A DNA stretch of 64,000 nt from Raillietiella orientalis (GCA_036172245.1 JAYWIR010000096.1:124001-188000); one strand, 5' to 3'; numbered from the stretch's first letter, positions 18,765 through 62,081 are shown. Numbers and translations: made by a program. Notes: generated from the sequence alone by a model not told the origin.

Positions 18765-18983
18765 TCCTCTCCCTTACCCTCCCAACTTTTCTTTTTTCTT
18801 TTGTTTTTTTTTTTTGTTTTTCTTCCTTCCCCCTGCTGCCGTGGTGGACCGTACCGGTCTGCGAACCGGTGACCCGGCAGGCTCTGTGTTTCTTCGTGCG
18901 TTGCAGGTGCAATGGTCCAGCCACCGCACGTCTTTGTAAAATTTTATTTTACAATAAACGCTTCGGCGAAATCCGGATGAAAA

Positions 18984-21900
18984 TCGAACGCCTTGTGGAG
19001 ATCGCCTGCGATCGCTAGGGCTTTCTTTCCCGCTCCGAGGTCCCTTCCTAGTCCGGCTGGCGGCCTCAATGTTGGGTTCCAGATTTTCCGTTTCCCTTTC
19101 TTCTTTCTTCTCTGCAGGTGCATCCATGTGCTTGCGAATAACAGGTTGGCATCCATACTTCGCCCGGGAACAGCATAAGTCTGCTCCGGGCTAATTATGG
19201 ACTCTGCCACCTGTCCCAGAGGCAAAGCCCATAGCCCTGCCAGCAACTTGGCGTCCGTATTCACAATTGTGATGGGACGCCAGTTGTTCAATTTACTGAG
19301 GTCTACCCCTTTCGGAAGGAGCCTCACTCTGTCTGACCGAAACAAGGCGGGAACATCGCCTTCGTCTCGGAGCAGCCTTGTCAACTAAAGCACCAGGGGT
19401 GCCAACTCTGCTGCGAAGCACTGGAAGAACTCCGCTAGCAAGCCTTCCTCCCCTGGCTCTTTACGTCTCTTGAGCCTTTTAATCCCGGCGAGAATTTCGC
19501 CGGTCGTAAAAGGCTCGTCGAGGCTTTCCTTCTCCTCCTCCCGTTTTGCCGGGGCTCCCTCCGGGAACAAACCACTGGGAACGTCCCGCTCCGGGAAGGA
19601 CTTCGCGTAAAGGGAGGAATAAAAACACCGCACGAGGTGCCGTATTCGAGCCGGGGCCGAGTGCTCCTGGCCCTCGTCCAGCAGGCTAGCAGACCCGGAT
19701 TGCCAGGCTTGACGTTCCGCCCCGGCTCGATACTCCACCAGGCGACGGATATTAAGGGTCCTCGCTTAACGACGAACGTACAAATACGCGCGTTCGTTAC
19801 GGACCCCTTCCCCAAATCCGGGGGCAGGCGATGCAAGGGGAACTCCTCGCAGAATTCCCTGACCAAGGCCTTAAAGAGGTCCCAATCAGCGGGATTCTGG
19901 AGGGTGACGCGTCTCAGGAATTCGCAAAGGTGTTCCTTCGCATCTGAGAGGCGCGTCCAGTCCCCAGGCAACCGCCACACCCTGGACTGGGGTCCCTTGT
20001 CGCGCGGGCACTCCTCGAATATCTATCTGGAATGGTCAGACAGTTCCGACGCAACTTTCCCCCGTTTGCCGACCCGCGAGCACAGGTCGACGTCCAGCAA
20101 GAGGTGGTCGATGCTGCTGACCATTTCCGGGAGTTCCCCTAACAAGTTGCACGTGCGCATTGCAGCCCACAACTCGTTAGCCGTCCGTTCCTGTGTGCGT
20201 AACTCACCTGATAGCAGGCGGAGATTGAAGTCTCCCGCTATCAGGTGAGCCACGCGAACGTTCGCTTCCACCAGCGAGTCGTGCTTCAGGCTTTCCAGGA
20301 ACGCCGCGCGTTCCCGGTACCTGTTATAACCGCTCGGGGCGTATACCTTTGTTACGACGAGGTCGATCGTGTCGGACCATCTGAGAATCAGCTGGCCGAC
20401 ACGACCGGCTTCGTCGAAGCGCACGCCCTTCACGGCAGCGTCGACCGCCGGCTTCATGAAAAACTTGACGCCGCAGGTGAATCGGGTGCCGCATTGCCAC
20501 ACCAGCCGCCCCCTGCGATCCTCTCGATCTCCTGGGCGTCCTCCCCGGTGATCACGTGGATCTCCTGCAGGCGTGCCAGGTCGAAGTCACGCAGGGTGGC
20601 TGCCGTGTCCCGTCTGTTGCTGTCGTCGCGCAGCCCGTGGACGTTCAAACATGCCACACGCAATCGACGGCGACAGGCGAGCCCAGGTGTTATTCCCGGG
20701 TAAGTGGCAATGGGGCTCCCGCCACCTGGTCGGGCGGGACGGATGGAGGCATAGGGGAACCGCCCAGCGGTTCTCCCACCTCCATGGGGGCAAATTCCTC
20801 GGCGGACCGGAACGATTGAAGGGAGCATGCTTCACGCACCTGCTTCCCCTCTTCCATGGGGGCCGATTCCTCGGCTGCGTTGGACGGCAGGGGGGAGCGG
20901 TTCTCAGCTGTCTTCTCTCCCTCTTCCATGACCATCTCCTCCGCAGGCTCCACCGGTGGAAGGGTGAGGCAATGCCCTACTTGCTCCCCTTCCTCCATGG
21001 GGGTGGCCGGCTGCTCGGTGGCGGAGGGTGGGAAAATTCCTCCCTCTGTTCCCACGCTGCCGGCTTCCCCCTCGGCTGCCGGTGCGTCCCCCTTGCTCTT
21101 TGTCGGGATGCGCCTCTTGGGATTCTTGGACTTCCGTCCAGTCTTCTTCGGAGGCGCCTCCGTGGAGGAGGACGAACTTCCGGCGTCCGTGTCGTGGTCA
21201 CCTGTCGGAGATGCCCTGGTCGCGGCCGGCCTTCGCAAGGCCTTGCGCGCGCCGTTCTCACGGTCGGCGAGTTTGGCCGCGAGCTCTTCCGCCGCCTGCT
21301 GGAAGGCGGCCTCGTCGATCGCGGCGAGCGCGTCGCGCGGTTCCCCCTCTGTTCGCACAGAGGGGAAGCCTTCCGTGATCGCGTTATCGTCGGCGTCGAC
21401 TCAGGGGATATCTCCCCCGGTGGCGGTCTCGGGTACCTCCACACGCTCCAAAGCGACCGAACATTCGCGGTTCAACGCGCGGCGTTGTCTCCTATTTAAA
21501 AGAGACGTCGCGGGTTCCGCTGTCGACCCTTCGGTTTTCTTAATTTTCTTGGCTTGAGGCTTCGCCTTCTGCCATCCTTCGCTCTTTTCAGCGTCGTCGG
21601 TAGATTCCACGATCGGCGTTTGCTGCACGGGCTTGGGCTCCGGCTGTGGGTTCCGCCTCACGGGTGCCTTCGCAAACTTTTCCGTAGCGCCCGCGCGTTT
21701 CCCTTTGGCCTTTTTCAAGGCAGCGGGAGTGGGGGGTTCGCGCTTCGGGCACACTTTGCGGAGGTGGCCCTTCTCTACACAGTAAAAACACTGGATGTGA
21801 GGGCACCGCTTTTTCAGGTGCCCTGTGGCATCACAGTGTCCACAGTACTTGGGCTTGCCCACGTACCAGACGTCGACTGTCTCGTTGCCGACGTCTAGTT

Positions 21901-28885: not shown

Positions 28886-29082
28886 ATTCGACGAGGAAGG
28901 TCGAGTTGGGCAACTTGTTCTCAAGTGGTCCGACTCGATCGACCTCGTGGTGACGTACGTATACGCGCCCTGTAGCAACCACAAACGCGGAGAACGCACT
29001 TCGTTCTTCAAAGCCCTGAGGAGAGACTGGTTGGCCGAAGCAGGCGTGAGGCGGACGCATCTGATAGCGGGAGACTTCAACC
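28886..29082 (+). mobile_element. APE fragment (FDEEGRVGQLVLKW...LIAGDFN)
   Basis: Translation matches the APE of the other copies and stops at GDFN. Confidence 0.85.
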
Positions 29083-30020
29083 GTCCCCTGTTTTTTGTTT
29101 TCGACACCCCCTATGCGGCGAAACAGCGGGCTAAAAGCCAGCTCAGGAAGGCTCTCTGGGGTCAGGCGAGATCCAGGATCCGTTTTAAAGATTTGGTTGC
29201 TCCGCGTCGGGATGCTGGTGTGGGTACCCTGACAATGGAGCAAATCGGACTGCAGGTGTAGCTCCAACTGCTGGCACTGTGTGCCCAGCTATGGACATCC
29301 CCCCCGTGTGTGCCAGCACGCATTCTCCTGCGAAGATGCACCGGTAGCGGAGGATTTCTCTCGCTTTTGCCGGGCACCCAATACAGGAAGCGGGGTTTCG
29401 GGTTTCCATTGCGGCAGTTGACCGCCCTTCTGGAAACTCACTCGAGGATCTCCCGCCGCCCAATAAACTTTGAAGCTTAGCGGCAGGAGTCTGTTGAATC
29501 CTGGGCGGCGTTCCAAGGAATACGCCCTGAAGATCTTCGTCCCCTGCGCCAATTTTTTCCACGATCCTTGGAAGAAGTACTGCAGGACGAGGTGAAGTTT
29601 TCTACCCTCACTGCCACGCCTCTTGCCGCAGCGCTGTATGCCCTGGGGGGAAGAAACGACAATTGCCAACCGGCGAGGTGGGAGGTTTCCTGCACGATAG
29701 AGGAAAAAACCAAACTCTTTGGCGCCTGGAAGACGAGTAAGTTGGCGGACGCCGCCACTCCTCGTGTAACTGCAAAGGGACCCCTCCGGTGGGCAAAAGA
29801 ACTTTGTGTCACCCCCTTCGAACTTGTAGTCTTTCCACAGTGTGTCGACAGTTCGCTGCTTTCCCTTGCTTGGAAACAAGCCATGCTGCTTTTCGTTCAC
29901 TGTGGTTTTCAGTGCAACGAGCGTTGGCATCGTCACTCCAGGGGACTTGCGTCTGCGAACTGCGTTCGGTGCGGATCGACGGAGTCGATTTCGCACCTAC
30001 TTCTGGACTGCATTGGGGCA
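29083..30020 (+). mobile_element. B/C-clade ORF2 C-terminal fragment starting directly after the host GDFN
   Basis: RPLFFV...KDLVAPRRDAG; CVRCGSTESISHLLLDC. Confidence 0.8.
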
Positions 30021-30147
30021 ATGAGGTCATCGCCCCCGGATCCCCACCGGTGGTGATATCAGGCATTGCTGCCTAATCCTCCACCCACACCACGCACAAG
30101 CGCCAACGGAAATGAAACTCAGGAGCAAGGAAAAGACACGTCCGCTC
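30021..30147 (-). mobile_element. Family H 5' end remnant (5' UTR plus MPDITT)
   Basis: Closely matches 61299-61425; begins GAGCGGACGTG. Confidence 0.85.
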
Positions 30148-42600: not shown

Positions 42601-43265
42601 TACCGTTGGGACGCAAAAACCACAAAGAAACAAAAAATGGAAAGGGAGTGGGGGCGTCGACGGTATCCTGGGTATGGAAGAAAGGGGCCACTGCAGAGCT
42701 CGAGAGGTCCTCCAAATACGGTTCTGTTTGCTAAGGAGTGCGGATCTGAATGTTTAAAGGCGGCGCCATATGAAATCTTTTTGAATGGAGATGGCTGCCT
42801 GATGAATGGCATTCTGGCTGTTGCGGCTCTGCTCGTTGCGGAAAACTTATCCAGCATTCCGCGTGCGCAATGCAGAGCTACTACACAGGCAGCTGTTCGA
42901 AGAGAGTTCTGAATCGAGAAGTGATAAAAAATCTTCTCTGGATCACCAAGACACATGTAGAAACTCCACGATAGTCGATTCCACATTGGGTGGACAGCAA
43001 TACATTCGAATAGGAGGTAGAAAAAGCTTTGCTTCTCCTTAAATCCTGAACAATTGAAATTCACGCATTCTAATGTCCACAGGGCAAAGCGTGCGTTTTG
43101 AAGGAGTTCAAAATGCAATCCCAGCAAAGCAGTTTCTTGTCAATCCAGGAGAAAGGTGCTCCTGTCACAACTCTATGGGAGCCACTTCCACTTCACATCC
43201 TCCGGAGAAATATCGAGCAGCACTCCCCATCGTCCAAACCCTTTAAATGGGACACTATGGAGATA
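42601..43265 (-). mobile_element. Old decayed ORF2 C-terminal fragment plus U-rich 3' UTR
   Basis: RWGVLLDISPEDVK, QETALLGLHF, YLLFECIAVHPMWNRL. Confidence 0.65.
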
Positions 43266-43269
43266 CCCA

Positions 43270-44780
43270 AGTACAGTGGCCGTGTAGGCTTATACAATCA
43301 ATCGGCTGTTTATGCAGCCTACGTTCACCTACGCATCGGAGTTCTAAAATTTCTTCGACCTGCTACGCCGGAGGAAAAGACACGAGATGAAGAGAATGAT
43401 CGCCTTCTTCTCGAAGACGATCTTTTCAACGATGATAAAAGAAATAAATGTGGATAGGAACCTATTAAACCAAGGGAAAAAAATCAACAAAGTCAGTCAG
43501 CAATTGTAGGAGAAAAGAGCCATTAAGTAAAGGATGGATTCACTGTGACCTCTATTCTTAACAGTTTTGTCAACTAAAAGAAAGAATCATATACCAATGC
43601 AGATAACATCCGCTCTAGAACCAACACACACAAACAAAGCCCAGAGGTAAAACATGGGAAGGCTATGGATCAGCAAGGCGGTTAATAACTTAGAAAGACA
43701 GAAAAAATCTAGTTCAGCTTTAAGTGAATAATGTTGCCAATTTTTGAAACCGAATTACCCTTCCGAGAAAAAAAATATATATTCTGGAACTTCTTTAATG
43801 GGTTCAACTTCAGAAGAAACAAAGAAAATGAAGATATATTCTCAGCTGTTACCAACGAAACTCCATTTAGCAAGCGTTCCGCGAATAGATATTGAATAAA
43901 AAGCAAAAACAAAAGTCCACATCAAAAATCCAAGAAATAGTTGAGGCATAAACCACTAAACAGGTTCCAGACTGCAGCATACAAACGAGGAACTCGAAGT
44001 AACATTGGAATAACCTAGGAAACAATTAAAATAATCAAGTTTCAGTTCTGTGTCACTCACACTTCAAAGCTTGATCTTAAAGAAAATTTTATGATATTCT
44101 CTTCGAAAAAGGTAATCAACTAAATGTAACATTAACATGAACCTAAAAATTCTCAAATGTTAGGTTCTCTCGGCATGGAATCACAACTTCGAAATCAGGA
44201 AATTTTGGATCGTGTAACGATCGTGAAAGAGATATGTAAACTGTACGATCTTATAGAGGAGACAGCATTATACAAATTTGAGAACAGCAATGAATTTTCA
44301 AGTTTCATAAATTTAGCAGGCAGGAATGACGACATAGATACAATACCCTTTCTAGATCAGAATTTCAAAATGAAACTACGAGAGATTGGATTCTCCAGAA
44401 TCAATGATCTACTTGAATGTCTCAGGTATTGCGATTACGAAGGACTGTTGTTTATAATCGTGGTTCGCGCCGACCTCGGAGGTGACCTACAGCAAACCAT
44501 ATCACAACTAATATTTCTGGCCTTAACACTCTACTTCTATATACTGTTAGGAAAATGATAAAAATCAAAGAAATAAAAAAACTTAAAAAAGTGGTGTGAA
44601 GTGATGAACTTATATTGAGCAATAGAAAACTGAGACAGGGAAGTGCATAGGTCAGGTCAGGTAAGGTTAGGTTAAATTAGGATGAGCGGTTGCCTTGGTC
44701 AACGTTTTGTGCGCTTCCCGCGTGCTGTGGTTTCCGAATTCGTCCTATCGACGGAATGACGTTTGCGGAAGTGGCAGACC
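43270..44780. other. AT-rich island unrelated to the retroelements
   Basis: Abrupt compositional shift; no retroelement motifs; TTAGG-like pentamers at ~44649-44681. Confidence 0.7.
44157..44558 (+). CDS. Hypothetical protein or exon of unknown function (133 aa, hydrophobic C-terminus)
   Basis: Open frame in AT-rich DNA where stops are otherwise frequent; no motif recognised. Confidence 0.3.
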   Translation: MLGSLGMESQLRNQEILDRVTIVKEICKLYDLIEETALYKFENSNEFSSFINLAGRNDDIDTIPFLDQNFKMKLREIGFSRINDLLECLRYCDYEGLLFIIVVRADLGGDLQQTISQLIFLALTLYFYILLGK

Positions 44781-46435
44781 TACTGCATTCGACTGAGGAT
44801 CCCGCGGTCCGGTACTTTAAGTACCTTAGCGTTCTGTTGTGCAAATTCTGCCCGTCACAAACGTGATCGGCCTGTTGTCAAAAGGCAGAGATAGCTCTCT
44901 GGCCTTTCCTGGAAGGCAACCTCGTCTTGCCAGAAAAAATGTTCATATGGAACACTTGCCCTGCTTCTCCGCTCTTTGTTTTTTGTTTGTACGCCTCCCT
45001 ATTTGGTGGAACTCCGGACTCAGCATCTCCTTCGCAAAGCCGTGTGGGGCGCTGCACGCTCCCAGGTTCCACTTAAAGATTTGGTGGCGCCATGCCAGGA
45101 CGCAGGCCTGAGCATTCTGACCATCCAGAAGATTGGACTGCAAGTGCAGTTCCGACCTTTATCCCTATGTGGGAAAATGTGGCCTAATCAGTGGTGTGCT
45201 CCAGCTCGCCGTATCCTCCAGCGATGTGTGAACAGTGCAGGACTGCTTTCGTTGCTGCCGTGCAACCTTCGCCGGAGAACTGCATTTGGTTACCCACTAA
45301 GGCATCTCGTTGTTGTTAGTCCATTCCTGCATTTTTTACCCCCCCTCCAACTGAAATGCTTGGCAGCAGGAATGTCTGAAGCACTAGACTTCTTTGGATG
45401 TGCGTCCAGTGCAACTGCGAACTCTAAAGGGTCTCTAACGCAAACCGCTAGGAGTGATCCTACAGGACTGGTCGCTTTGGTCCCGGGTAGCCGTCTCACC
45501 CATCGCCGCAGCGCTGTCTGCTCTCAGGGCAAACAACGACAGCAGACAACCGGCAAGGTGGGAGTTCTGCAGCATTGCAGGAGTGTGGAGACTGCTGATC
45601 GGCTGCAAAACAAGCGTGTTGATAGAAGCTGCCACTCCTCGTTACCCGGCAAAGGGACTCCTTCGTTGGAGTGAGGTTGTTAGATTACTCTTCGAAGATC
45701 TCGTGGTCCCTTCCTGTGTGTGAACACCTCCTCGTTCCCGCTTCGATGGAAACAGGATGTTCTGCTTTTCCTGCACTGGGGATTTCAGTGCAATAAGCGC
45801 AGACACTTGGTTTTCGGGGAGTCGCCTCCCCGAACTGCCTAAGGTGTGGAGCGATAGATTCGCTTACGCACCTGTTCCTGGAGTGCAGTGACTTGCGGGA
45901 GTTATAGCGGAGACTTGCTTTGGCACTTCAACGTCCCTAGGACACTGTCATCGGCCTGCTGAGATGCTTCTTCAACGAAAATACAGACTGGATAAAGGCG
46001 CTGTGATCGCAAAAATCTGTTGCATCCCCGCCATCGTAGCGGCCCGCCGTAAGCTACAAGGAAGCTCGCAGCGTATGGACGCCGTCAGGATAGCCGCGAA
46101 CCTTATGGAGGTAGCTGTCAGGTGGCCTCATGTGCACAGAAAAGTCTCCAGAGAAGTCCCCATCGTAAGACTGCGCTTCTAAGAAGATGAGGAACGTTTA
46201 ATGCCAAAGATCCTGTACCCCATCCTCCACCGTTTTCTTGTTTGTTCTCTAATGTTTTGTTTATTTTGTAGCCCTCTTCCTCCGTTCCTTTCTTTTGTAA
46301 GGCGGCCTGCGTGCCGGTGATCCTTCCGGGCTGAACATTCTGTATGGGCTTCTCTGGTGTCTTCAAGGGATAAATTTTCCTTCAAGATTGTGGTTTGTTT
46401 TCAAAAATAAACGTCTTTGCGCAACCGGGTTCAAA
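44781..46435 (+). mobile_element. B/C-clade (G) ORF2 C-terminal part with 3' end
   Basis: RYFKYL, LKDLVAPCQDAGL, HLFLEC; AATAAA 46406-46411 and decayed hairpin. Confidence 0.8.
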
Positions 46436-46705: not shown

Positions 46706-48050
46706 CGGTGCACCCCGGATTAGTCCGTTCCAAGAAGGCAGGATCTACTTGCAGGAACGGGCCGCGATGTAAAACGTGTTTCCGGCCCCCCTTCTTCGCC
46801 CCCTACTTTTTGTGTGCCCCGCCTCAAATTTCTGACGAAAAAGGGCAGCGGGCCTCCTCAGGACAGTCCTTTGGGGCAAAGGTAGGTCCCGTATGAGGCT
46901 CAAAGACTTCTCTGCTCCACGAAACGACGGTGGACTAAGCGTTCTTACGCTGGAGCGCATAAAAGTGCAACTCCAGTTTAGGACTCTCGCCCTCGCGGCA
47001 GAACTGTGGGACACGCCCTGATGCATCCCAGCACGCCTCCTGGCCCAACGAGCCTGCGGATTCGGCGGACTTTTGTCGTTTCTGCTGGCGCGCGACCGCA
47101 GAGAAGCACACGGCGGCTTTCTCCTGCGTCGCATGGACGTTGTGGTACGGGAGAACGCCTGGATCTCCTGCCTCCCAGGGAACTACTCGGCATGGTTGCA
47201 CGAGTCAGTCTCCACCTGGGAAAAGATCCACGTTCCGGCGGGCACAAGGAACACTTGCCTGAAAAGGCACGCCCGCTGGACGCTGCAAAAGATCGTGCAG
47301 TCCCACAAGGCTGGCAAGAAGAACGGTTGCCCGAGACGTGTCGCCCCTCTGCAAGTGGAGGAGGCCACGTCCTCGGGCACGGAGGAGGAGGCAATGTGCG
47401 TTGCCCCACGCGACCCTTCTCCGTTCCGTGTCTCTGAAGCCAGCCAAATTGAAGTCTCTCTGGAAAACGTGCTCACAAGGTAGCAAACGTGCTACCTTGT
47501 GAGCAGCAGACCGTCGTCACGGCCGCCAGCGAGGCGCCTCCCGGAAGGGAGAAGGCCACCTCCACCCCACCATAAACACACCGATTGGTGGGCTCGCCTC
47601 TTGCAGCCGCTTGCACGTCACCTGTTGGAATGTCAACGGATTGCACGACGACGGTAAGAGGCGAGACGTAGCCGCCACACTGCGAGACTTCGACCTGGTG
47701 CTCTTGCAAGAGACGCATCTTCTCATAGCAGATGTCCAGAAAATCGAAAAATTCGCAGGAGGACGCCTACTGTGGAGGAACTGAACGGAATTCTCCTGCG
47801 GAGTGGACTTTCTGCTCAAGCCACCCGTCGACAATTCACTGCGCAGCGTCCGGTTCGACGAGGACGGTCGAGTTGGGCAGCTTGTGTTCAAGTGCTTCGA
47901 CTCGATCGACTTCGTGGTCTCGAACCTGTACGCTCCAGTGGGCAGCCACAGGGCCAAGGAACGCACTGCGTTATTCCAATCCCTGCGGCGATAGTGGTTG
48001 GTGGAAGCGGGCGTGCAAAGGGCGCACCTCATTGCGGGCGAATTCAATCT
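46706..48050 (+). mobile_element. Mosaic: ORF2 C-terminal fragment joined (~47380) to an ORF1 end and APE N-half ending at IAGEFN
   Basis: LKDFSAPRNDGGL; VTCWNVNG, LQETH, NLYAP, GEFN. Confidence 0.75.
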
Positions 48051-49795
48051 AGTGCGGACGTATTTTTCTTCGCATTCGTCTCCTGGCTTTCATTCCCTCC
48101 ATCCTGGTGTCGTGCATTCCGACAACGATGGCGACTTAACCCGAAGATACTGAAGAGGGAGTAATAGCATCAGGATCTGCAATCGCGGAACCAACGGCCG
48201 CCTCCTCTCCTTCTGCCTCGCCAATGGCGAGATGTTTCGCTGACGTTGCTGCCGCGGCAGCCGTCAAAGGGGTACAACCCAACGAGAAGGAGGTGCAGGC
48301 CTACGTAGTCCAGGGCTACAATCTTGCACTCCGCTGCCAGTTCAGTGGATTTCTTTCTGTACGCGACGGTAATCAGTTCAACGATGAACTGACCCGTATT
48401 GGCGTGAGAAAGGAAGACCTTCTAGCCATTCTGCCCATCAAAAGCATGGGATATTTCAAAGTGCGCTGCAAAGACGCCGCTCTTGTGCAACGATTGCTAC
48501 GCACTCCTTTCTCCATCCGTGGTAAGAAGGTCTTCCCGTCAACCATGGATGAGTCATTCGTGGCGGAGATTTACGGCATCGAACCGGAAAGTTCCGACCG
48601 CGAATTGCATACTGTGTTAGCGAAATCCCCACGTTCCATGCTATGTAGAAGGTTGGAAGCACCCTTAAGGATTTTTCATCCATCGTAAGCGGTAGTGCAG
48701 CGGTTCGACTAACCATGGCGGACCGCCGGCTTCTACCCTTTAAGCTACAAGTGAACGGCACGGTCGTTCACCTGTGGCATTCAGGAAAGCCTCGAGTATG
48801 CGAGAGTTGCGGCGAAGAAAGGCATTATTCACAAAAGTGCCCTTCTGGTAAATGCCGCTATTGCAAGCAATCCAAGCACAACTTTAATAAATCCCGGACC
48901 TTGCTAGAAAAAAGGCAGCCGCAAAGCATAAACGCGCGAAATACGTCGCGAAAACGAGAAACGCGGCAGAGAAAAAACAGTGCGCATGGGCTAAGTCTCG
49001 TTCCGATGCGAATCGAAATGCCGGATAACAAAAGGGGTCCTCAACGTTGAAGCCCCTCGCGTCCCACTTAGCGGCAGGCAAGCTGGAGAAATTGCGCGGG
49101 AGCTCAAAGGACGACTCTACAGCTCGTGTCAACGATCGCGGAACCGCGGTTTCAGACCAGGGCCCAAAGAAGGCCAAGGGAAAAGAACTGCTGAACGGCG
49201 ATCGCAGTCAAGTGAAAAATAATCATTTCACGACATTGAGCCCTTCAAAGACGAAGAAGCCCAATGGCGAAAAAGGAAGGAGGCCTTCTTTCTGGATTCG
49301 AAAACCGGAAAAAATAATCGCGCGCCTCGCAGCAGCGCCCCGTCAGCGGAGAACCGTTCTCCGTGCGCACGATCGGAGAGCAAGCTCCCGACATAAAAGG
49401 ATGCGACCCCGACGGAGACGTCCACGGCGGTGGCGCACGCAGCGCCGCTGACGGCCGAGGAGTTAACCGCAGGGGTTCTCGCGGCGCAACAGGAGATCGC
49501 CTCCGAATACAGCGAAAGCGAGTAAACAGTGGTGCAGAGGAGAGGTAAGAAAAAAGCTCCGAAAAACGCTCCACAGCATCCGTCGAAAGCGCTCTTGAAG
49601 GCAAGGAACTCTCGAGTGATGAAAAAGACTCGCGCGGAAGTTCCTGGTGCAATATTGCGCTCCGATGCTGAAATCGCGCGAGCTGTAGAAACAGCCTCCT
49701 TACAAAGCGAAGCCACATTACCAAAGAGCGCAAAAACGATCGCTGTCCCACAAAAAAACAGCCGTTGCTCTTCGCGTGACGCGAAGAGCAACGGC
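48051..49795 (+). mobile_element. Family C copy C1: 5' end plus decayed ORF1
   Basis: AGTGCGGACG start; ORF1 homologous to that at 54665; CESCGEERHYSQKC. Confidence 0.85.
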
Positions 49796-52124
49796 TGTTT
49801 TTTGGGGCAGATGGCAGAATCCGTAATTAGCCCGGAGCACACTTATGCTGTTCCCGGACGAAGTATGGATGCCAACCTCTTCTTCGCAATCACATGGATG
49901 CACCTGCAGAGAAGAGAAAAGAAAGGGATAAGGAAAGTCGGCAACCCCACATTGGGGCCGCCAGCCGGGCTCGGAAGGGACACACGGGCTGGGAAAGGGG
50001 CCCTAGCGCTCGCAGTCGACCTCTACAACGCGTTCGACTGTGTAGACCAGGAACTTCTCTTGGAGCTCCTGGGTCGCATGGACTTTCCACCTTCCCTGAT
50101 TTCCTACCTGCGCTCTTGCTGGCGGAATGCGATAATTACCGTCCCTTTTAGCATTCAAAAGGTATATGGCGTGCCGGTGCGGCGGAACATAAGGCAGGGA
50201 GATAGCCTCAGCCCCCTTCTCTTCAGCACCTACTTTAAGTTGGTGCAGAGAGCGTACAGGGTGACTCTGGCCTCATTGCCGAGCTCGTGCCCCGGCACGC
50301 TCGCCGTAGCAGCGTACGCCGACGATCTTCTGCTCCTCTAACCTATGTCCACCCAGGCGAAGGCGGTCGGAGATTTCTTCGACCTGCTTAGCCGTGGGGC
50401 CGGATTACAGGTTAACAGGGCGAAGTTGTCAGTGTTGCCAGCAGGAGCGACGTGGGCAAGGCAGCAGGACTGGATCCTTCTGGGGATCCCCACGGTGAGG
50501 AGCATCATGTAACTCGGTGTGCCGTTGGGGGACTTCTCTCCTGCGGAAGCGTGGTCCAGCTGCCTCCAGAAAGTCGGGACGGCGATCGGCCCGTTCCTGG
50601 AAGGCAAGTTTCACTTGCCGGAACGGACCGCGGTTTGGAATGCCTTCGGGGCCATCATCCTCCGCCCCTTGCTTTTTGTTTGCCCCCCCCTGTGGAATCA
50701 AAAAAGCGGACGAAGGACCTCCTCCGCATAGCTCTTTGGGGCAAGGAAAGGCCCCGAGTCCCTTTGAAGGACTTGTGCGCTCCGCATCGGGACGGCGGTC
50801 TCAGCATCCTGACGCTGGAGCGCGTGGAAATCCAGCTGCGATGGCAAACCCTCGCCATCGCAGCGAAGATGTGGAGCACCCCTTGGTGCATTCCGGCCCG
50901 CCTCCTGGCCAGCGGTGTGTCCCGGTGCGATGGACTCGCGTCTTTTCTTCTGAGCCGTGGCCGGAAGATGCGAAGATGCGGCCTACTACTCGGACGCATG
51001 GCAACATTGGCCAAGAAGAACAGCAGGATGGTTTGCTGCCCCGCCAACTCCCCCTCCTGGCTGGAGGAGAATATTGGAACGTGGGCAGTGGTTAACCAGA
51101 GAAGCCACGAGACGTGGAATCGTCTCCGATGCAGCCTTCACGCCCGCTGCACGCTGCGCAATCTCCTGGAGAGTCCAGCAAGATTCACGTGGACAGAAGC
51201 GACCTGCCTAGCTACGGCGCTGCCCTTCCTGAGGAGGGCAGTTCACAGCAGACGGACGCCGAGGTAACAAGTCTCCTGCTGCATCGAAGGACGCGAGAAG
51301 TTGAATAGCGGCTGGACAACAGGAGAACTGGCCGACGCCACGACCCCGAGCGTCCAGCCGCGAGGATTATTAAGATGGGGCGAGCTGCTCGCCATCCCCA
51401 GGGATGAGCTGAAGTGGCCCCCAGTGATGAAAGAATCCAGGATCCTACCCCTCAAGTGGCAAGAGTCGGGCTGCTTTTGTTGCACTGGGGTCTACCCTGC
51501 AACGCGCGCCGCTTCCACTGGACGAGGGAGTTGTGGATCCTGCGTATGCGAGGTGCGGAGAGCGGAAGTCTCACCCCCACCTTATTGTGGATTCTGCTGC
51601 CCTGCGACCCCTTTGGAAACGGCTCGGGACGACCCTCGGGCTCCCTACAGGCAGCACCCTCAGAGACGTTCTTCGGCCCCTCTTCGTGAAGGACGCACTG
51701 CAGCCCGCCGCAGTTATCGCAGCCTTGTGCTGCTTCCGTGGCATCGTGGCGGCATGGAGCGACGGCAGCAACGAAGAAGTAGGTCCACAGGCGAGAGATG
51801 CCATCCCATATGCCCTACGCTCCTTGCGAAGAGCTGCCGTATGGCCCCAACTGGGGAATATGCAGACTGACCTCGAGGGCTTTGTTGGACGGATGGGCCC
51901 TCCCCACAGCGACCACTGATCCCTTCCCCGCCCTCCAACTTCTTTTTGTTCGTTTCTTTTTATTTTTCGTTTTGTCTTATCATCATCCCCCTTCGCTGTC
52001 GGGGAGTGCCACGCCGGGCTGCGTCCTGGTGTCCCGACTGGTCGCGTGTTTACGGCCGTCGTGGGGCCTCGTACCACGCATGTAGAGTTTACAAATAAGC
52101 GCCCCGGGCGTACCCGGGTGACAA
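49796..52124 (+). mobile_element. Family E copy E1: RT to 3' end
   Basis: DLYNAFD, RQGD, YADD; stop 51917-51919; hairpin CCCGGG-CGTA-CCCGGG at 52103-52118. Confidence 0.88.
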
Positions 52125-52138
52125 CGCCGAATCCCGGC

Positions 52139-54587
52139 TGTGGAGAGAGGACGTGCTTTTCCTGCGCTCCGCATGCGTAGCAAAGCGAGTGTTTTTTTTT
52201 TCTTGAGTGATTTGTGCGTGCACATCCTCGGTGTCCGATGGCAGCGTTGCCAGAAGACACCGCGATGGAAGTAGGCGTGATGGAGGCTTGTTCGTACCCA
52301 CAGCCTACTGGAGCAGGGTCATCCGCCCCGGAATCGTCCCCGGCGACGCCGAGGTCATGGAGCGCCATGATGGCCGCGCCTAGCGTGGAAGCCATGGCCG
52401 AGATGGAAGCCTAGAAGAAAGCGGGGTATAAACCCTCGCTAGTCTACAAGGTAGGCAACCTTTTCCATAGGCGAACTGCACGCGCCTTTACGAAGGCGCT
52501 GCAGAACGCCAATATCTTCGAAAAAGATCTGGACGGCCTCTGCGTCCTCAGCGGCGGGCAGCGAATCGAGGTGGTATGCAAGGATATAACCTTGGCCCGA
52601 CACCTGATCACCGACCCGCTGATCGTTGATGCTCGGAAGATCTTGCCGGTGACGATGGAACGCTCGGTGGTGGTCCATCTCACTGGGATCTCCAGTCGAA
52701 TGACTAGGTCAGCGGTTCGAGAACAGCTACAAAAGCACGCAGAAGTGCACGCGTTGTGGCCGGAGTCCACGATTTTCCAAGGCTACAATAGCCTTTTCAA
52801 ATGTCAAGCTGCGGCGCGTATCACCGTAAAAGAGGGTGGTTCGCTTCCCCACAAGCTGGAAGTCTGCCAAGAAGCGGTGGACCTCTGGTACGTGGGGAAA
52901 CGCCAATTTTGTGGCTACTGCAATGCAGTAGGGCATCTACGAAAAAGGTGCCCGAACATTGTGTGCCACCTATGCGGCGGAAAGGGTCACGTTCGGCGCG
53001 TGTGCCCCAAGCGCATCACCCCGGTGCCCCCTGCCGCCAAAAAGGCGCAGGGCAAACGTGGAAAGCTGGTAGAAAGACCAGCTCGCGAAAATGGCCGTTT
53101 CCAACTGCCAGCCTCCCTTCCTCCCGTACAGACGTCGGGAGAAAGAGCTCCCGTGAACGCGGAAATTGAGGAGGGTTGGCAGCTGGTTCAGGCCAGAAAA
53201 AAAAAAAAAAAGAAATTAATGCCACAAGAAAACTCCGAGAAGAAAACTGCCGGCAACAAGAAAAAAGCCGCGCCGCTTTCAAGAAAAAAAAAACAACTTC
53301 GCGAATGCTCGGTGGCACTGGAAAGCTTAGCCGTTCATGCCGAGTCCGCCCGCGGCAATGTTCGCGGAACAGCTGATGCGGACGCGATGAATACTCGCGT
53401 GGACGAGCCCATTCTACGTTTAGAGGGTGAGACGCGAGACTCGCGCGCCGACAGCCAGGACGCCGCGCTCGATAAAGTCGCGTAGGAGCCCGCGGCAACG
53501 TTCGCCGTCAGCGATGACTCCGCGCTCGATAAGGTCGCGGAACAGCCCGCGGCACCGGTCCCCGCTGGGGAAGACGAGGCCTTCTAGAATGCGGCAAAGG
53601 AGCACGTAGCAACGCTCGCCGAGCGCGAAAACCAGCCGCGCAAGGGCGTACGCAGGTCGGCTCCGACGAAGAAGGCCCCCGCAGGTGAGTGCGAGCTGGG
53701 GGCCGGAAGCGGATCCTCCTCCTCGGAGGCACCCCACAGGAAGTCGGGACGCAAGTCCGAAAAACCCAGGAGGCGCCTGCCCTCCACCAGCGAGGAGGAG
53801 AAGCCGGAAGGAAGCGGCAGCGTGGGAATCCCGGTGGAGGAATACCCACGCCCGGAAGCCGTCGAGTCGGCCACCCCCATGGAGGAGGATGAGCATAGGG
53901 GTGAAGTCCTCCCTGCAGTCGCGAAACCTGAGCAGCCCGAACCCATGGAGGAAGGCGAACAGGTAGGCGCGGCTCCACCTGCGGGTGATCCGGCCGCCGC
54001 TCCGGCAGCGATGGAGGAGTAGGAACAGGTGCCTTCAGTACCTGTCCTCCCTCCCCCTTCACCTAGCGTCCCGCCCACGCAGGTGGCGGACGCCGCATCG
54101 CCGTTTTCCCAGGACTAACACCTGGGCTCGCCAGTCGCCGTCGGATTCGCGCCGCCTGTTGGAATGTTAACGGGCTGCGCGACGACGGCAACAGGCGACA
54201 TACGGCCGACACCCTGCGTGAGCTCGACCTAGCGCTGCTGCAGGAGATCCACGTGATCACCGCGGCAGACGCCCAGGAGATCGAGACGATCGCGGGGGGT
54301 CGGTTGTATTGGCGATGCGGCCACCGCAACACCTGCGGGGTCGCGTTCTTCGTGAAGCCGGCCATCGGCGCTGCCGTAAAGGGCGTGCGCTTTGATGACG
54401 ACGGTCCGATCGGTGAGCTGATTCTCAGCTGGTCCGATTCGATCGACCTAATCGTCACAAACGTGTATCGCCCCAGCGGCAAACAGTGGTACCGCGACCG
54501 CACCAGGCTGCTGGAAACCCTGAAACGCGACTGGATGGCGGATACCAATTTGTGAAAGGTTCACATGATAGCGGGAGATTTCAATCG
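52139..54587 (+). mobile_element. Family E copy E2: 5' end, ORF1 52238-54118, APE up to GDFN
   Basis: GAGGACGTG 5' motif; CGYCNAVGHLRKRC, CHLCGGKGHVRRVC; TAACA junction. Confidence 0.88.
53458..53630 (+). repeat. Three degenerate ~57-bp units (D.ALDKVA.EPAA) in E2 ORF1
   Basis: GAC(G/T)CCGCGCTCGATAA(A/G)GTCGCG occurs twice; the third unit is the DEAF..AA motif. Confidence 0.65.
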
Positions 54588-54604
54588 AGTGCGGACGTGT
54601 TTTA
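54588..54604 (+). promoter_or_regulatory. Conserved 5'-terminal (C)GGACGTG motif, DPE-like internal promoter candidate (representative copy)
   Basis: Present with variants at all nine recognisable A-H 5' ends. Confidence 0.55.
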
Positions 54605-57600
54605 GTTCGCTCTCGTCTCCGTGCATTCATCCGCTTCATTTTGGCGTGGTAGATTTTGACGACGATGTCGACCCAACCCAGAGCTACTGAAGTTGGAGGA
54701 ACAGCATCCGGAACTGCAATCGCGGAACCGACGGCAGCCTCCACTTCGTCTTTCTCGCCAATGGAGAAAAGTTTTGCTGACGTTGCTGCCACAGCAGCCG
54801 TCAATGAGAAACCACTCGATGAGTCGGAGTTGGGGGCATACGGAGCCCAAGGCTATAGACCTGCTCTCCGATATAAGGTAAGTGGCTTTCTTTCTGCGCG
54901 CGAGGGGAATCAGTTCAACGATGAACTGACCCGTGTTGGCGTATGGGAGGAGGACCTTCTCGCCATTATGCCCGTAAAAGACATGGGCTATTTCAAGGTG
55001 CGTTGCAAAGACGCTGCACTTGTGCAACGCTTGCTGCGCACCCCGTTGTCGATCCGTGGCCAAAAGGTCTTCCCGGCCGCCATGGACGACTCATTTGTGG
55101 TGGAGATTTTCGACATCGAGTCGGAAATCCCCGATACTGATATTCGGAACGCGTTGGCGAAATTCGCCACGGTCCATGCGCTGTGGAGGGTGGGTAGCAA
55201 CCTCAAGGACTTCTCGTCCATACACAGCGGAGTCGCTAGAGTCCGGCTTACAATGCCGGACCGCCGTCTGCTGCCCACCAAACTACAGGTGAAAGACACG
55301 GTCGTTCACCTGTGGTTCGTAGGCAAAGTAAGAACGTGCGAGCAATGCGGGAAGGAGGGGCATTGTTTGGATAAATGCCCCTCGGAAAAATGCCGTTATT
55401 GCAAACTATCCGGGCACCACTTGAAAAATTGCCCGGATCTTTTGCGAAAAAAGGCAGCCGCGGAGCTCCATCTTAGAAAACAAAGCGCGGATCAAAAGAA
55501 AAATTCAGCGAAAAACCTGGAGACCCCACGGCAGAAATTCCGAAAAAACGCGAGGCGGAATGTCGCCCCAAAGCAGCAGGAAACCTCGCACGCCCCTCTC
55601 GCGGCAGCTGAGCCGCAAAAGAAAGGGTGCGGAAAATCCGGGGCAATGGTAAGTCCCCCTAGGCGCAATAGCTGTCCTTCCCAAGCACGCCCGGCTCTTT
55701 CGGAGTTCGAGCAACCGGCGGGGACGTCAATGGACAACGGCGGTAAGGACACTTCCAGTACCGTCAGATCGAATCCTTCACCTCCTGCAGTGGCTGAGAA
55801 GCCCAAATCGGGTAAGAAGGGTTGTGCCGTGTAGACTTCGAAAGTCGGCAAAAAAAAATCCGCGTCGCGATTTAACACCCCGAAAGCGGAAAAAAATCTC
55901 ACGTTGTCGCGTTTGGAGAGCAAGCTCTCGACTAACGCGGATGCCATGCCAACGAAGGGATTAAATGCGCTTCCGAAGGCAGCGTCCATGACGAGCGTGT
56001 CGAAGCCATCGAAAGTGCTTCCGTCCAAAGACGCGGATGGCTTCAAAGATGGCAATGGAGCACAATCTCCATTTACGGCGCCACGCGAAGTGAGGAACCG
56101 TAATGAAGTAAAGAAGACTTCAGCAAAGGTCCCTCGTGCAACTGCGCGTGGGCACGCTGAAAACGCGTGCGCCGCGAAAGCAGCAGTCACCAAAAGCGAT
56201 GCTCTGGTGACGGAAAACGAAAACAGGACAGCTGTCAATCCAGCAGAACCTGTCACTACTTCGCGGAAGCCCGAAACCCGATCGAACATGCGCTAATCGG
56301 ACTCCGAAATGGATGCCGTTCCGATCACCGAGACAAGGACAACTCTTTCGAAAGCGGGTGCGCGCCGATCAAAAGTAGGCAGCCAGGCAACGCCAGCCGC
56401 GAAGCCACGCGAAGTCTTCACGAAATCCGACAAGGTTAAGCCTGGCGTGGAGAAATTACATGCATGCAGCACGACGGAGGACGGTGGCGACCGTCCCTTC
56501 CAGCCAGTCGTGCTGCTCGCCGGATAAAGCGAGCAACAATCCGCCACCTTCCCAGCAGTAATGCGGGGAATCGCGTCTTCTCGTCGTCTGTCCGTAACGT
56601 GTTCCAACGTGAACGGACTACAGAACGACGAGAAGAGGCGATTAGTAACCAATGCCCTGCGATCCTTCGACCTCGCGCTCCTGCAGGAGATTCACGTAAT
56701 CTCCGACGAGCAGGCAACCGAAATCGAGGAGCGCGCAGGCGGAACGCTACATTGGCGGTGCGGCGGCGCACACACGTGCGGCGTCACGTTCCTCGTAAGA
56801 GGAAAAATGGCGGAAGCGGTGCGTAGTGTTCGTATTGATGACGACGGACGGATAGGCCAGCTTGTCATCAAGTGGTCCGTGTCCGTCGATCTCGTCGTTA
56901 CGAACGTCTACGCGCTGAGAGGCTCTCGCTACCTCGAAGAAAGAGTAGCTTTCTTTGGAGAGGTGCAGAGCCACTGGCTCAACAACTCCAGCTTCCGACT
57001 GGCGCAACTCGTCGCTGGGCACTTCAACGTCCGCCTGCTCTCAGACGATTGGAGCCGCCCGAGGGAGCGCGCGCTGACCATCGAGATGTGCGCTTCCGGG
57101 CACGCCGCCAACTTGATGGTCAGCAAACCTGGAATGGAAAGATCGCTCGATCACGTTTTCCTCGATGAAAACCTGTATTTGCGTGTGGGTAGGAGAGGAA
57201 GATTGTTGACTAAGCTTTCTGACCACCTCAGGTTGGAGTTTGAGATCCTTTCGCCAGGCAAGGGGCCTCCGTTGCAAAGCTGGAGGATGCAGGCGGATTC
57301 GCTTAGCCAACCTGAGGCTGCGGAACATCTACGTGGATACCTCCGAGGCTTTGCCATACAAGAACTTGCGGACTGGGACAATCTCAAAAGATCTGTCCGC
57401 GAGTTTCGCTGCCAATTCTCCTTGCACCGGCTTCCACGCGGTTTCAGAGAGGGTGTGGCCAACAGTAGAGACTTTCTGCAGGCCCGCACGTTTTCAAGAC
57501 GCGCCGATGTCGGGCGTCTCGCAGAGTACAAGGCGAGGGCCGAGCGCCAGGTCTGGCAGTCCGGAGCAGCATGCCTGTTGGACGACAGGGGCCGGGAATG

Positions 57601-58278
57601 TTCGGCCCCAGCCGAAGTACGCAGCATTGTGAGACGCTACTACTCCTCGCTCTACGCGGAATCCCCGACGGAGGATATTCTTTCTGAGATACTCCTATCT
57701 CAGGATGCTCGTGTTGTCGGCAAGGAGGAACGCGAACGTCTCGACGAGCCCTTCACGGCGGATGAATTTTCGTCCGCCATCGCTGGGCTGAAGAGACGAA
57801 AGGCGCCAGGCGAGGATGGGCTCCCTGCAGAGTTTTATCAGTGCTTTGCAGTGGAGCTCATTCCCTTGATGCTGAAGCTCGCGACGCTGATGAGTGAATC
57901 CGGGAATGTCCCTGATTCCTTCCGCTCAGCGAAGGTGCGTCTCCTGCCGAAAGACAGAGACTTGCGCCAACTTAGCAGCTGGCGTCCGATCACCTTGGTG
58001 AACTCGGAGGTCAAGTTGTTTTCCAAGGTGTGGGTCGCGCGGTTAGGAAGAATCGCGGAATCTGTGGTGAGCCCGGAACAAACCTACGCGGTTCCAAGAC
58101 GATCCATGGAGGCGAACATCCTTTTCGCGCGTACATGGATGCAGCTGCAAAAAGTTGTGACGCAGCAAAGCCAGGCTGCTGCGAAAGTCACTGCCGCAAG
58201 CAAAAAGAACAGGCGCCGACGGCAGGAGGGAACGCTAGGTGCCTTGGCGGTCGCGGTCGATCTCCACAAGGCGTTCGA
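54588..58278 (+). mobile_element. Family C copy C2: 5' end, ORF1 54665-56561, ORF2 56561-58278 cut at DLHKAFD
   Basis: AGTGCGGACGTG; CEQCGKEGHCLDKC, CRYCKLSGHHLKNC; TAATG 56559-56563; ORF2 open to KAFD but with GHFN for GDFN. Confidence 0.9.
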
Positions 58279-60145
58279 TTTTCACCCGCATTTTGCCAGG
58301 GCGTGTATTGTGAAATATACATTTACAAAGACGTGCGGTGGCTGGACCATTGCTCCAGCCACGCACGAAGAAATACAGAGCCTGCCGGGTCACCGGTTTG
58401 CATACCGGTACGGTCCACCACGGCAGCAGGGGGAAGGGGGAAAAACAAAAAACAAAACAAAAAAAAAAAGAAAAGTTGGGAGGGTAAGGGAAGGGATCAC
58501 AGTTGCTGGTGGGGCCGTTGCATCCTTTGCAGGATGCCAGCAAGCTCCTTCTGTATTCCTGGATCCAGGTGAGGCCATCAGGACGCCCTCCTCAGGTACT
58601 GGGAGGCTGGCTGGATGGCAACCTGGTCGCGTTGTCCTCCCGTAGCCTTGCTCCAAGCGGTGACGATCCCGCGTAGGCAGCGCAAAGCTGCTCACGAGGC
58701 CGCTGGCCGAACTGCGTCGGCAACGAAGAAGGCTCTCAGTGGGTCCCTGGGGTTGCCGCAGCAGATTCCGATGGCCGCGGCAAAGCGAAACCAAAGGGGC
58801 CGAAGGGCAACACAATCCACTAGCAGGTGGGGGAGGGAATCCCGTTCCCCACACCTGACGCAATTGGGGTCCACCGCTCCCCAGGTACAGTGGTGTCGGC
58901 GGGCGTTGCAGGGGAGTTCCCAGTGCTGCAACAGGAGAGCCGACTCCTGCCATTTTAAGGGGAGGGCGGAAGTGTTCATGAGCACCGGGCGCCACTTCAG
59001 ATGTTCAATGGGAACATCAAGCAGCGCGCCCCAGCGCAGAAGTCCTTTGGGAGGCGTACTCGGGGTCCCAGCGTCTGTTACCTGGCCCGTCTTCCACTCT
59101 CCTATCTTCTTCTCCTTTCCGGAGATTGTTACTGTAACCACCCACTTCGCCGCAACATCGCTTTCCAGATCTTCCATCAGGTAGGGCAGCGCAGCAGCGA
59201 GGGGGGTTCTTCCTGCCCACGCTCTCTTTTTTGGATCCTCTAGGATCTCGCACAGCGTACAACTTCTGTAACCCCCAAACAGGAACCTTCGTTCCTGTTG
59301 GGAGCGTTGCATGCCGAACTGTCCCCACGTTCGAACGGTTTCCTGCAACCAGGCACTACCGTTAAACGGGCGACAGGTGAGCAATCCTGGGTTTTTCCGA
59401 TACAGCGCAGCCACCCTCCGTAGCTGGAGTCCGCATCGGTTGACGCGGAGATGGAGTGCAAGAAACGACGTCGGTCCCGTCTTGCCGGTGGCTTGCTGAA
59501 GCAGGAGACGTGCAGGGACGCACCAACAGGTGCACCACAACTCTGGAACGAGTGCCGACAAGCGGAACTGGAGCTGAAGCTCCAGCCGCTCCAGCGTCAG
59601 GAGACCCAGACCACAATCCCGACGATGAGCGCACAAGTCCTTTAAGCGGACTCCGGCCCTCCCTTTGCCCCAAAGGGCGTTACGGAGGAGGTCCTTCGTC
59701 CGCTTTTTGAACCTCTCTGTGGGGGAACAAACAAAAAGCAGGGAGCGGAGGAGAGGAGCCGCGAACGTGTTCCAAACCGCGGCCCGTTCAGGCAGGAAAA
59801 ACCTGCCGCCTCGGAACGGGCCGATCACCGTCTCTACATTTTGGAGGCAGCCGGACCACGCTTCCGCAACGGAGTAGTCCCCCAACGGCACACCAAGGTA
59901 CTTGAAGTACCTCACCGTGGGGATCCCCAAACGGACCTAGTCCTGCTGCCCTGCCCACGCCGCACCAACTGGCATCACGGACGACTTCGTCCTGTTCACC
60001 GTAAGTCCGGTTCCCCGATGTAGCAGGTCGAAGAACTCCTCGACCGCCGCAGCCGGGGTGGACATAGGGAGCAGCAGCAGAAAATCGTCCGCGTATGCTG
60101 AAACGGCCGGCGTACCGGCACAGTCGGGCGGCAGGTGCGCCAGAG
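58279..60145 (-). mobile_element. Family A copy A4: RT C-half to 3' end, antisense in the C2 KAFD codons
   Basis: Collinear with A1 ~5755-7614; YADD; TGATCCCTTCCC at 58499. Confidence 0.9.
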
Positions 60146-61298: not shown

Positions 61299-62081
61299 GA
61301 GCGGACGTGTCTTTTCGCTGCTCCTGAGTTTCATTTCCATTGGTGCTTGTGCGTGGTGTGGGTGGAGGATTAGGCAGCAATGCCTGATACCACCACCGAC
61401 GAGGATCCGAAAGCGATGACCTCATTGCCACCGGAGGAGCTGGAGATGGGGCTTTCGCATCAGTGGAGGCTCCCGAGACCACGGATGCGCCCCCGGCCCT
61501 ACCCAGGGCTTGGAACACCGTGGCTGCGGCACCTACGCCAGCGGAAAGCCTACTCCTTTTGTCGATTACGACGAGGTGCTTGGCGGCCTGAGTGCAGCGC
61601 GAGAGACGGTTCGCGAAGGGTGTGAGTTTCCCCACAAACTCACCTTCAACGGTGAATCCGTTGACGTGTAGTACGTGGGGAAACCCAAGTTCTGCGGCTG
61701 CTGCAGCAGCTTTGGTCACCTCAAAATGAGTTGTCCGAGCGTGCAGTGCCATCAATGTGAACTAGCGGGGCACACCCGTCTGATGTGCCCCCAAAACACA
61801 GTCCGCGTTATGTCCGCAAAAAACGCGAGTAAGCGCACGGCTAAAAAAAGAAAGAAGTTGGCAGCTCGTGCTGCTGCTAAGGAATTCACCTACGCCACCA
61901 AGGCGAAGGCCAGCCCCGACAACCCGGCGAAAAACGCCGAAAAGGTCGAGGGCGAGGGTCAAGAGCCAGGTTGGCAGAAGGTCGACTCCAAGAAGAAGTC
62001 CTCTAAGAAGGGCGAAAACGTACAGAAACGGAGCGAAACCGCTCCGCGCCACGAAAAAACCAAAACCTGCTGCGTCGTCGT
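61299..62081 (+). mobile_element. Family H copy H2: 5' end plus internally deleted ORF1 (from 61380), cut by B3
   Basis: GAGCGGACGTG; CGCCSSFGHLKMSC, CHQCELAGHTRLMC; ends KTCCVVV. Confidence 0.85.

Follow-up and report, generated by a model that had tools for sequence, protein, structure and literature searches.

Repeated joining of one LINE lineage to the GDFN codons of a sister lineage's endonuclease gene in Raillietiella orientalis

In a 64,000-nucleotide stretch of the Raillietiella orientalis genome (GCA_036172245.1, JAYWIR010000096.1:124001-188000; hereafter the window, with positions counted from its first letter), two diverged copies of a repeated sequence, family C, adjoin two copies of the endonuclease gene of a long interspersed nuclear element (LINE), which raises the question of how they came to be joined there. 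An earlier note on this DNA had placed family C in sense orientation exactly 2 nucleotides (nt) after the GDFN codons of the apurinic/apyrimidinic endonuclease-like (APE) domain, and both junction strings that it quoted are present, at 48037-48060 and 54574-54597. At the H1/C1 junction, positions 48037-48048 read GGCGAATTCAAT (GEFN), followed by CT and then by AGTGCGGACG at 48051-48060; at the H2/C2 junction, positions 54574-54585 read GGAGATTTCAAT (GDFN), followed by CG and then by the same AGTGCGGACG at 54588-54597. As the note had read, the host APE sequence is cut in both cases 2 nt past the Asn codon of GxFN (GDFN or GEFN), with the insert in sense and the break at the same nucleotide. 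From the analysis below, one LINE lineage has landed at the same few bases of a sister lineage's endonuclease gene at least two times, and probably three times.

Nearly the entire window consists of LINE pieces on both strands, as seen with Pfam, tblastn and nhmmer with two full-length references; the copies at issue are listed in Table 1. With an intact second open reading frame (ORF2) taken from the window as query, tblastn matched amino acids (aa) 7-168 at 47569-48051 and aa 6-167 at 54100-54585, both matches ending at the GxFN Asn, and the Pfam match to PF03372 (Exo_endo_phos) on 54067-54555 covered only profile positions 3-138 of 225. By nhmmer, H1 maps to coordinates 1729-2198 of element E7. 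H2 was matched by nhmmer at 52145-53230 and 54024-54586 and by Pfam zf-CCHC and PF03372, and its N-terminal APE half ends at the GDFN codons plus CG. Twelve APE copies in the window span the site, 9 of which continue GDFN-(L/V)xLL (E5 and E6 read GDFN-LRLLSG through it, uninterrupted), and 3 of which are broken, at 48050, 54587 and 29081. The three junctions (48050/51, 54587/88 and 29081) lie within 2 nt of each other in hosts that are not sister copies. The broken sites make up 3 of the 8 H-clade copies, that is, those of the host clade, and none of the 4 C-clade copies, numbers too small for a claim of clade preference.

The GDFN motif of these APE copies aligns with the GDFN of the human L1 endonuclease (PDB chains 8sp5 and 1vyb). 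The earlier note's identification of the target as an endonuclease GDFN motif is therefore upheld, both by the N-terminal APE half and by this alignment. The note also gave the Asp and Asn a catalytic role; the corresponding residues of the L1 endonuclease, D145 and N147, are catalytic.

We next consider what the insert is. Family C is the 77-nt 5′ untranslated region (UTR) and ORF1 of a full-length LINE from a sister clade, not a special parasite; the earlier note had correctly seen a real repeated insert, but this is part of an ordinary element rather than an element of a separate kind. C2 is colinear with the full-length element E3, a single nhmmer alignment pairing 54590-58279 with E3 coordinates 5-3744, and C2 is accordingly the 5′ part of one LINE, E2. 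Its ORF1 comprises ∼390 codons from the ATG at 54665 and contains two CX2CX4HX4C motifs; a low-complexity tail comes after the ORF1. The Pfam zf-CCHC profile reached E = 9.9e-05 on the ORF1 of H2 only, matched the ORF1 of E5 weakly and gave no match on that of C2. On 56528-58645, Pfam matched PF03372 over profile positions 4-225 of 225, plus RVT_1. The ORF2 of E2, which starts at 56528, is truncated at the KAFD codons of reverse transcriptase (RT) motif A by the 3′ end of an antisense LINE, A1. Up to that junction, it has 0 stops across 584 codons, compared to 1 stop in 162 codons of the H2 APE, so the insert is less decayed than its host. The endonuclease motif of E2 itself (57017-57028) reads GHFN, CAC replacing GAC, and this copy is therefore probably endonuclease-dead now. 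The ORF1 of C1 probably extends, as a diverged tail, as far as 49802.

The placement of the junctions depends on where the element begins. A 5′ terminus reading AGTGCGGACGTGTTTT, or a near variant, also begins E3 (14621-), E6 (28885-), E7 (32963+), E12 (30146-) and E13 (61300+), and is less well kept at H2 and E11; the flank that precedes it differs from element to element. This terminus is common to other subfamilies, the hosts' own H clade included. Because C2 is colinear with a whole LINE and the terminus starts at least five other elements with different flanks, AGTGCGGACG is the true 5′ end of the element, and the junctions are therefore correctly placed. The exact 10-mer AGTGCGGACG occurs twice in the 64-kb window, both times at the C junctions; with up to 1 mismatch, 10 matches were found against 5.5 expected. 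The assembly at H2/C2 is supported by sequencing run X1, the sole DNA run listed (0.19 of the window's words; no RNA run was listed), in which a 3755-nt Logan contig covers 54557-58278 at ∼95.6% and bridges the junction by 31 nt. A second X1 contig stops at 48050 with 20 unaligned letters and is uninformative for H1/C1.

A third junction, H3/X, lies in sense orientation 0-2 nt from the C junctions. The H3 host reads GGAGACTTCAAC at its terminus (29070-29081), and the start of the RT C-terminal match to other elements is placed at 29081, at the RPLFF codons, by four independent blastn alignments. X scored 300 and 276 bits in nhmmer against E3 and the E3 duplicate but 39-114 bits against H-clade copies. 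An internal deletion of a single element was considered for H3/X and rejected, because the junction joins an H-clade to a C-clade sequence. It strengthens the case for a preferred site. X is a further sense-oriented element at this site, besides family C, which the earlier note had called the only sense-oriented targeter. C-family 5′ ends in the window lie at the GDFN site in 2 of 2 cases, plus X, and the sister subfamilies E3, E10 and V lie at other places.

Taken together, these data are best read as insertion of C-family elements into the APE genes of the H clade by site-specific or strongly site-preferring target-primed reverse transcription (TPRT), a reading to which we give somewhat better than even credence. 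It is unlikely, in our view, that GDFN is instead a hot spot of breakage or joining, with the junctions formed by RT template switching onto truncated host ends or by microhomology repair or deletion, so that no host 3′ half would follow the insert. H3/X has microhomology (host GTCCGCCTG, X CGTCCCCTG) and could be a repair junction, but a 5′-truncated TPRT product would be expected to show the same. The window contains no orphan C-terminal half of an APE; two head-to-tail junctions, R/E11 and Z/H2, with 8-22 filler nt, resemble end-to-end template jumps, and several flanks, for example both sides of E6, are irreconcilable with simple nesting. However, a hot spot does not readily account for two full-length elements joined with exact 5′ termini at the same nucleotide. 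An RT that switches templates would be expected to jump to the 3′ end of an RNA, and there is no sign of host RNAs terminating at GDFN+2: no Rfam family reached the gathering threshold in the window, where a microRNA match near the junction was below threshold. Processing by a 5′ hepatitis delta virus (HDV)-like ribozyme that would free C from host transcripts is, because of the same scan, unsupported. Moreover, clean nested insertions with target duplications occur in the same nest (E3 and E7, described below), and simple nesting would put the missing host halves >16 kb to the right of the window, as judged from the nhmmer map.

Could C have entered the host only once? We regard it as quite improbable that one ancestral insertion gave rise to a composite of N-terminal APE half and C that was then copied by segmental duplication or by 5′ transduction from a chimeric master. 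In its favor, C1 and C2 align unbroken through the junction (47589-48922 with 54123-55461, gapless, at 71.4%; 70.4% in a global alignment), and other composites in the window are clearly duplicated (pairs at 87.5% and 86.8%). The earlier note had described inserts and hosts as substantially diverged, which they are: the insert parts of C1 and C2 are 74.7% identical (660/883) and the host parts of H1 and H2 62.1% (287/462). A neutral leader would also decay faster than the coding part of C. Against a copied composite, the host parts are less alike than the insert parts, and identity of the H2 APE is 77.8% with E5 and 76.3% with E6, neither of which is interrupted, versus 62.1% with H1. A maximum-likelihood tree of the 12 N-terminal APE halves split a C-like clade (E2, E10, E3, E8) from an H-like clade (H1, H3, H2, E5, E6, E7, E4, R) at 100/100, grouped H2 with E5 and E6 at 92/96 and paired H1 with H3. 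H1 and H2 as one clade were rejected by the approximately unbiased (AU) test (p = 0.005, delta lnL 23.5), although the value of this result for our reading is lessened by the grouping having been chosen after the distance matrix was known. Sliding identity between H1 and H2 showed no rise toward the junction, right up to which H2 remained nearer to E5 than to H1, and the upstream contexts differ, H2 keeping its ORF1 and 5′UTR while H1 is truncated near the start of ORF2. A single insertion also leaves H3/X unexplained. Because H2 is closer to the uninterrupted E5 and E6 than to H1, the AU test rejects the joint clade and similarity does not rise at the junction, we conclude that C-family elements inserted twice, independently, into different H-clade copies, at the same nucleotide and in the same orientation. 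An interrupted copy cannot give rise to an uninterrupted one, and a chimeric master with an APE leader is therefore disfavored as well.

For TPRT at this site, we propose the following course. C-family elements would enter H-clade copies in the orientation of the host, with the second-strand (upstream) break 0-2 nt past the GDFN Asn codon, after ...TTCAAY-C(N). A first-strand nick ∼8-13 nt upstream would produce a duplication ending in TTCAAYCN (TTCAATCN for H2), such that the 3′ junction would consist of the duplicated ...TTCAAYCN followed by CCGCCTGCT (LRLLS). The C-family APE, perhaps aided by pairing between the target and the 3′ end of the RNA, would recognize 10-13 bp around G-N-GA-N-TTCAA-Y, and the strand bearing this motif would set the orientation of the insert. 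The benefit to the element may be a multicopy target that selection on active elements holds constant and whose use spares host genes. Exactly at the break, struck hosts read AAY-CTC and the C clade AAC-GTC, a difference that might make C immune to itself. Very unlikely, finally, is a short, loose nick preference of all these LINEs (around CGA/GA-N-TTCAA) that coincides with the GDFN codons without dedicated recognition, its apparent precision due to few events. In its favor, the sequence that flanks E7 on the 3′ side at the linker site, GCGACTTCAAGG on the antisense strand, has GACTTCAA in common with the GDFN site read in sense. GNGANTTCAA was found 8 times in the window, where 2.5 would be expected (6 of the 8 at GDFN sites), and elements from either clade occupy shared sites (E6 and E10, both at FDEEG). 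A short motif, however, would offer many sites per ∼5.5-kb element, yet 10 of the 11 mapped element 5′ ends (a count that leaves out E5 and E9) are confined to five places in other LINEs that were struck recurrently, the positions of the three GDFN junctions differ by no more than 2 nt, and comparison of the site sequences revealed no convincing nick motif common to all five.

Several observations weigh against TPRT at a preferred site. The events number only two to three, and the X1 contig over H2/C2 probably represents this very locus in a close relative rather than an independent event. No 3′ junction of C1, E2 or X lies within the window, E2 being cut at KAFD by A1, C1 before ORF2 and X at E3 coordinate 5301. 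Neither APE sequence from beyond GDFN nor a duplicated GDFN tail was found behind any of the 10 element 3′ ends seen in the window, and the absence of an orphan APE half from the window counts here too, as does the possible repair origin of H3/X. The dinucleotide ahead of C2 is CG, whereas relatives of H2 carry CT there. C-like relatives are found elsewhere, E3 in an ORF1, E10 in the FDEEG codons of an APE and V beside an antisense RT fragment; GDFN specificity would belong to a subfamily whose 3′ end is absent from the window. Lastly, the duplicated composites, together with neighborhoods that simple nesting fails to explain (for example, both flanks of E6 and the C1/Z junction), indicate that rearrangement has been common in the window. 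Searches of metagenomes for relatives of the C ORF1 matched 213 pattern stretches, of which 0 were confirmed by tblastn, and the junction pattern GAYTTYAAYNNAGTGCGGACGT gave 3 metagenome matches (L001-L003), none with LINE proteins by tblastn, which we attribute to chance.

Table 1. Positions of the joined host and insert copies, the empty site and other element boundaries in the window
Feature	Position	Strand	Description
H1	47569..48050	+	3′-truncated N-terminal APE half of an H-clade LINE, by tblastn; ends with GEFN codons (48037-48048) plus CT
C1	48051..48933	+	C-family LINE; 5′ end AGTGCGGACG, 77-nt 5′UTR, ATG at 48128, frameshifted ORF1
H2	52147..54587	+	5′ part of an H-clade LINE: 5′UTR, ORF1 (52415-53485) with CCHC knuckle, N-terminal APE half (54100-54587)
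C2 (E2)	54588..58282	+	One colinear C-family LINE: 5′UTR (54588-54664), ORF1 (54665-55834), ORF2 from 56528 (APE and RT)
H3	28886..29081	+	H-clade APE fragment, aa ∼100-167, ending at GDFN codons 29070-29081; tblastn and maximum-likelihood tree
X	29081..30014	+	5′-truncated C-clade LINE fragment, RT C-terminal/zf-RVT region, E3 coordinates 4368-5301
Empty site in E5	20207..20236	-	Uninterrupted GGGAGACTTCAAT CTCCGCCTGCTATCAGG; E5 is the closest relative of H2
Element 5′ ends (examples)	54588, 48051, 14621(-), 28885(-), 32963
Element 3′ ends (examples)	7609, 18978, 32670, 38489, 62087(-), 23641(-)
KAFD-tail junctions	58267-58290; 18978-18995; 7609-7634; ∼52120-52147		E2/A1; E4/E5; R/E11; Z/H2, in that order

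The GDFN site is one of several in the window. The elements here are APE-type LINEs with CCHC knuckles in ORF1 and an ORF2 composed of APE, RT and zf-RVT; many copies carry PF03372, RVT_1 and zf-RVT, and their sequences match the human L1 endonuclease, L1 ORF2p and the R2 RT in PDB. All share a 3′ end formed by the hairpin AAACGNCCCGGCGNAACCGGGT plus 2-4 A-rich nt, and a 5′ terminus AG(T)GCGGACGTGTTTT, with subfamilies 55-80% identical; no poly(A) was present at any element 3′ end in the window. Copies that are 5′ truncated include X, Z and Y. Besides GDFN, at least four further sites have been struck recurrently in the window, among them the KAFD codons of RT motif A.

At the ORF1 site, E3 (8825-14621, minus strand), a full-length LINE of ∼5.8 kb, lies antisense in the ORF1 of another LINE. 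It is flanked by an exact 8-bp duplication, GTTGTCGT, at 8817-8824 and 14622-14629, and splits one host into 7635-8824 and 14622-18976, halves whose reference coordinates overlap at 1146-1160. The same junction recurs in another composite, at 61546-64000, which may have arisen by duplication and not by a separate insertion (8321-10744 is 87.5% identical to 61584-64000). The linker site is occupied by E7 (32963 to ∼38493), which is antisense and separates W (32676-32927) from E8 (38496-41158), the other half of the same host, with a decayed target duplication of ∼10-11 nt. The target duplications of E3 (8 bp) and E7 (∼10-11 bp) indicate that these elements integrate in the ordinary LINE way. 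The linker region, between APE and RT at E7 coordinates ∼2512-2540, has received antisense insertions recurrently: the junctions E12/Y (30146) and E13/A1 (61300) lie ∼8-12 nt from that of E7, in other hosts. Since the E12 and E13 composites are 86.8% identical (30017-30838 with 61429-60608), these two junctions may represent one event.

At the APE FDEEG site, E6 (28885/28886) and E10 (4060/4061), both on the minus strand and from different clades, start at the same nucleotide of the antisense APE FDEEG codons of plus-strand hosts. The junction sequences, with a slash at the junction, read ...CGTCGAAT/AGTACGGACG for host H3 and ...CGTCGAAC/CGTACGCTCC for host R. At the KAFD site, the 3′ ends of A1 (host E2, C clade) and E4 (host E5, H clade) abut TCGAACGCCTTG/TGGAGATCG, which is the reverse complement of DLH-KAFD in RT motif A. 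In the A1/R/E4/Z family, 3′ ends are followed by the 12-mer TCGAACGCCTTG, which matches the (H)KAFD codons in reverse complement, and the hosts E2 and E5 then continue antisense ...DLH. Uninterrupted hosts read AAAGC(A/T)TTCGA at this place, not AAGGCGTTCGA. R carries the same 12-mer with a different flank, and the 12-mer may therefore be an element RNA tail that pairs with the target, or a target duplication from tandem re-insertion. The tail of Z is decayed. E11 follows R, and H2 follows Z, head to tail (7626/7635 and ∼52128/52147), each junction comprising a complete 3′ end, 8-22 nt and a complete or near-complete next 5′ end, as would be expected if one site had been entered repeatedly or if the RT had jumped from the end of one template to the next.

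A broader reading, which we offer tentatively, is that these elements form a guild of diverged LINE subfamilies homing with nucleotide precision into each other's conserved coding motifs: GDFN in sense, KAFD in antisense and three further sites. The 12-nt 3′ tail of the KAFD inserters, as the reverse complement of the codons that they enter, would belong to such a system. It is possible, though doubtful, that catalytic codons serve as a target that an active rival cannot mutate away, by a logic analogous to that of inteins and homing introns; a "rival-killing" purpose of the GDFN insertion is speculation. Homing introns and inteins are selfish inserts in the most conserved codons of a gene, which active copies cannot mutate. 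The likeness is one of analogy only, in that the insert sits at a conserved catalytic motif; those elements use a DNA homing endonuclease and repair rather than TPRT, whereas the LINE insert is unspliced and destroys the host copy.

Target-specific LINEs with an APE endonuclease, of the R1 and Tx1 clades, are known from genes for rRNA, snRNA and tRNA, from telomeric repeats and microsatellites and from a DNA transposon, whereas the target here is the endonuclease coding sequence of a sister LINE. Tx1L, for its part, enters a different transposon, Tx1D. Such LINEs insert at one defined sequence in a multicopy target, sometimes in tandem, with precise 3′ boundaries and less precise 5′ boundaries (PMC4640811). 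The preferred reading of the GDFN junctions, TPRT at a favored site, resembles the manner of Zepp, in which LINEs insert into other LINEs. Zepp and ZeppL form clusters of L1-type LINEs in green algae that are nested as new copies target existing ones (PMC8226300, citing Higashiyama 1997, and PMC3446292). Like those clusters as described there, the window is a LINE-in-LINE nest with head-to-tail pieces and 5′-truncated copies (PMC8226300, PMC3446292). It differs, in a comparison with Zepp by description only, in that several subfamilies, 55-80% identical, occupy discrete, nucleotide-precise places that include the GDFN and KAFD codons, and in that the elements lack poly(A) and have a conserved terminal hairpin. 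In the literature searched, which lay outside the original Zepp papers, we found no description of LINEs with fixed targets in the APE or RT motif codons of other LINEs.

Site-specific LINEs are known that enter rDNA, small-RNA genes, telomeres or microsatellites, and LINEs of the Zepp type are known to accumulate in copies of themselves; if the guild reading is true, related LINE subfamilies would have separate nucleotide-precise targets inside each other's coding sequence. The evidence of the window alone amounts to a handful of 5′ junctions. If this is confirmed, the APE endonucleases of these elements would form a natural series that differ in their long recognition sites, of use in understanding and re-targeting LINE integration. 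The elements would also show clearly how transposons compete with one another, or how they target a safe haven, and would supply a mechanism for the build-up of LINE-only islands, possibly centromere-like.

Some further features of the window were recorded. Z (49803-52128), which follows C1, was considered as its 3′ part and rejected, because Z belongs to the H clade and is 80-86% identical to A1 and E5. Certain breakpoints are shared: X (29081) and F (∼22774-22803) both begin at reference coordinate ∼4060, at the RPLFF codons, and at reference coordinate ∼3200 Z begins (49803) and Y has an internal deletion (30836). Between the ORF1 and the APE of H2, 53446-53616 consists of three tandem 57-nt units, of which the second and third are 82% and 61% identical to the first. 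A protein search with the RT ORF returned 2 relatives only, at 57% and 26% identity, and an atlas search returned generic RT clusters only. We note that the region 42000-46000, between LINE pieces, has a G+C content of 0.45-0.47 compared to 0.53-0.62 elsewhere, and holds the more diverged LINE fragments E9 and V.

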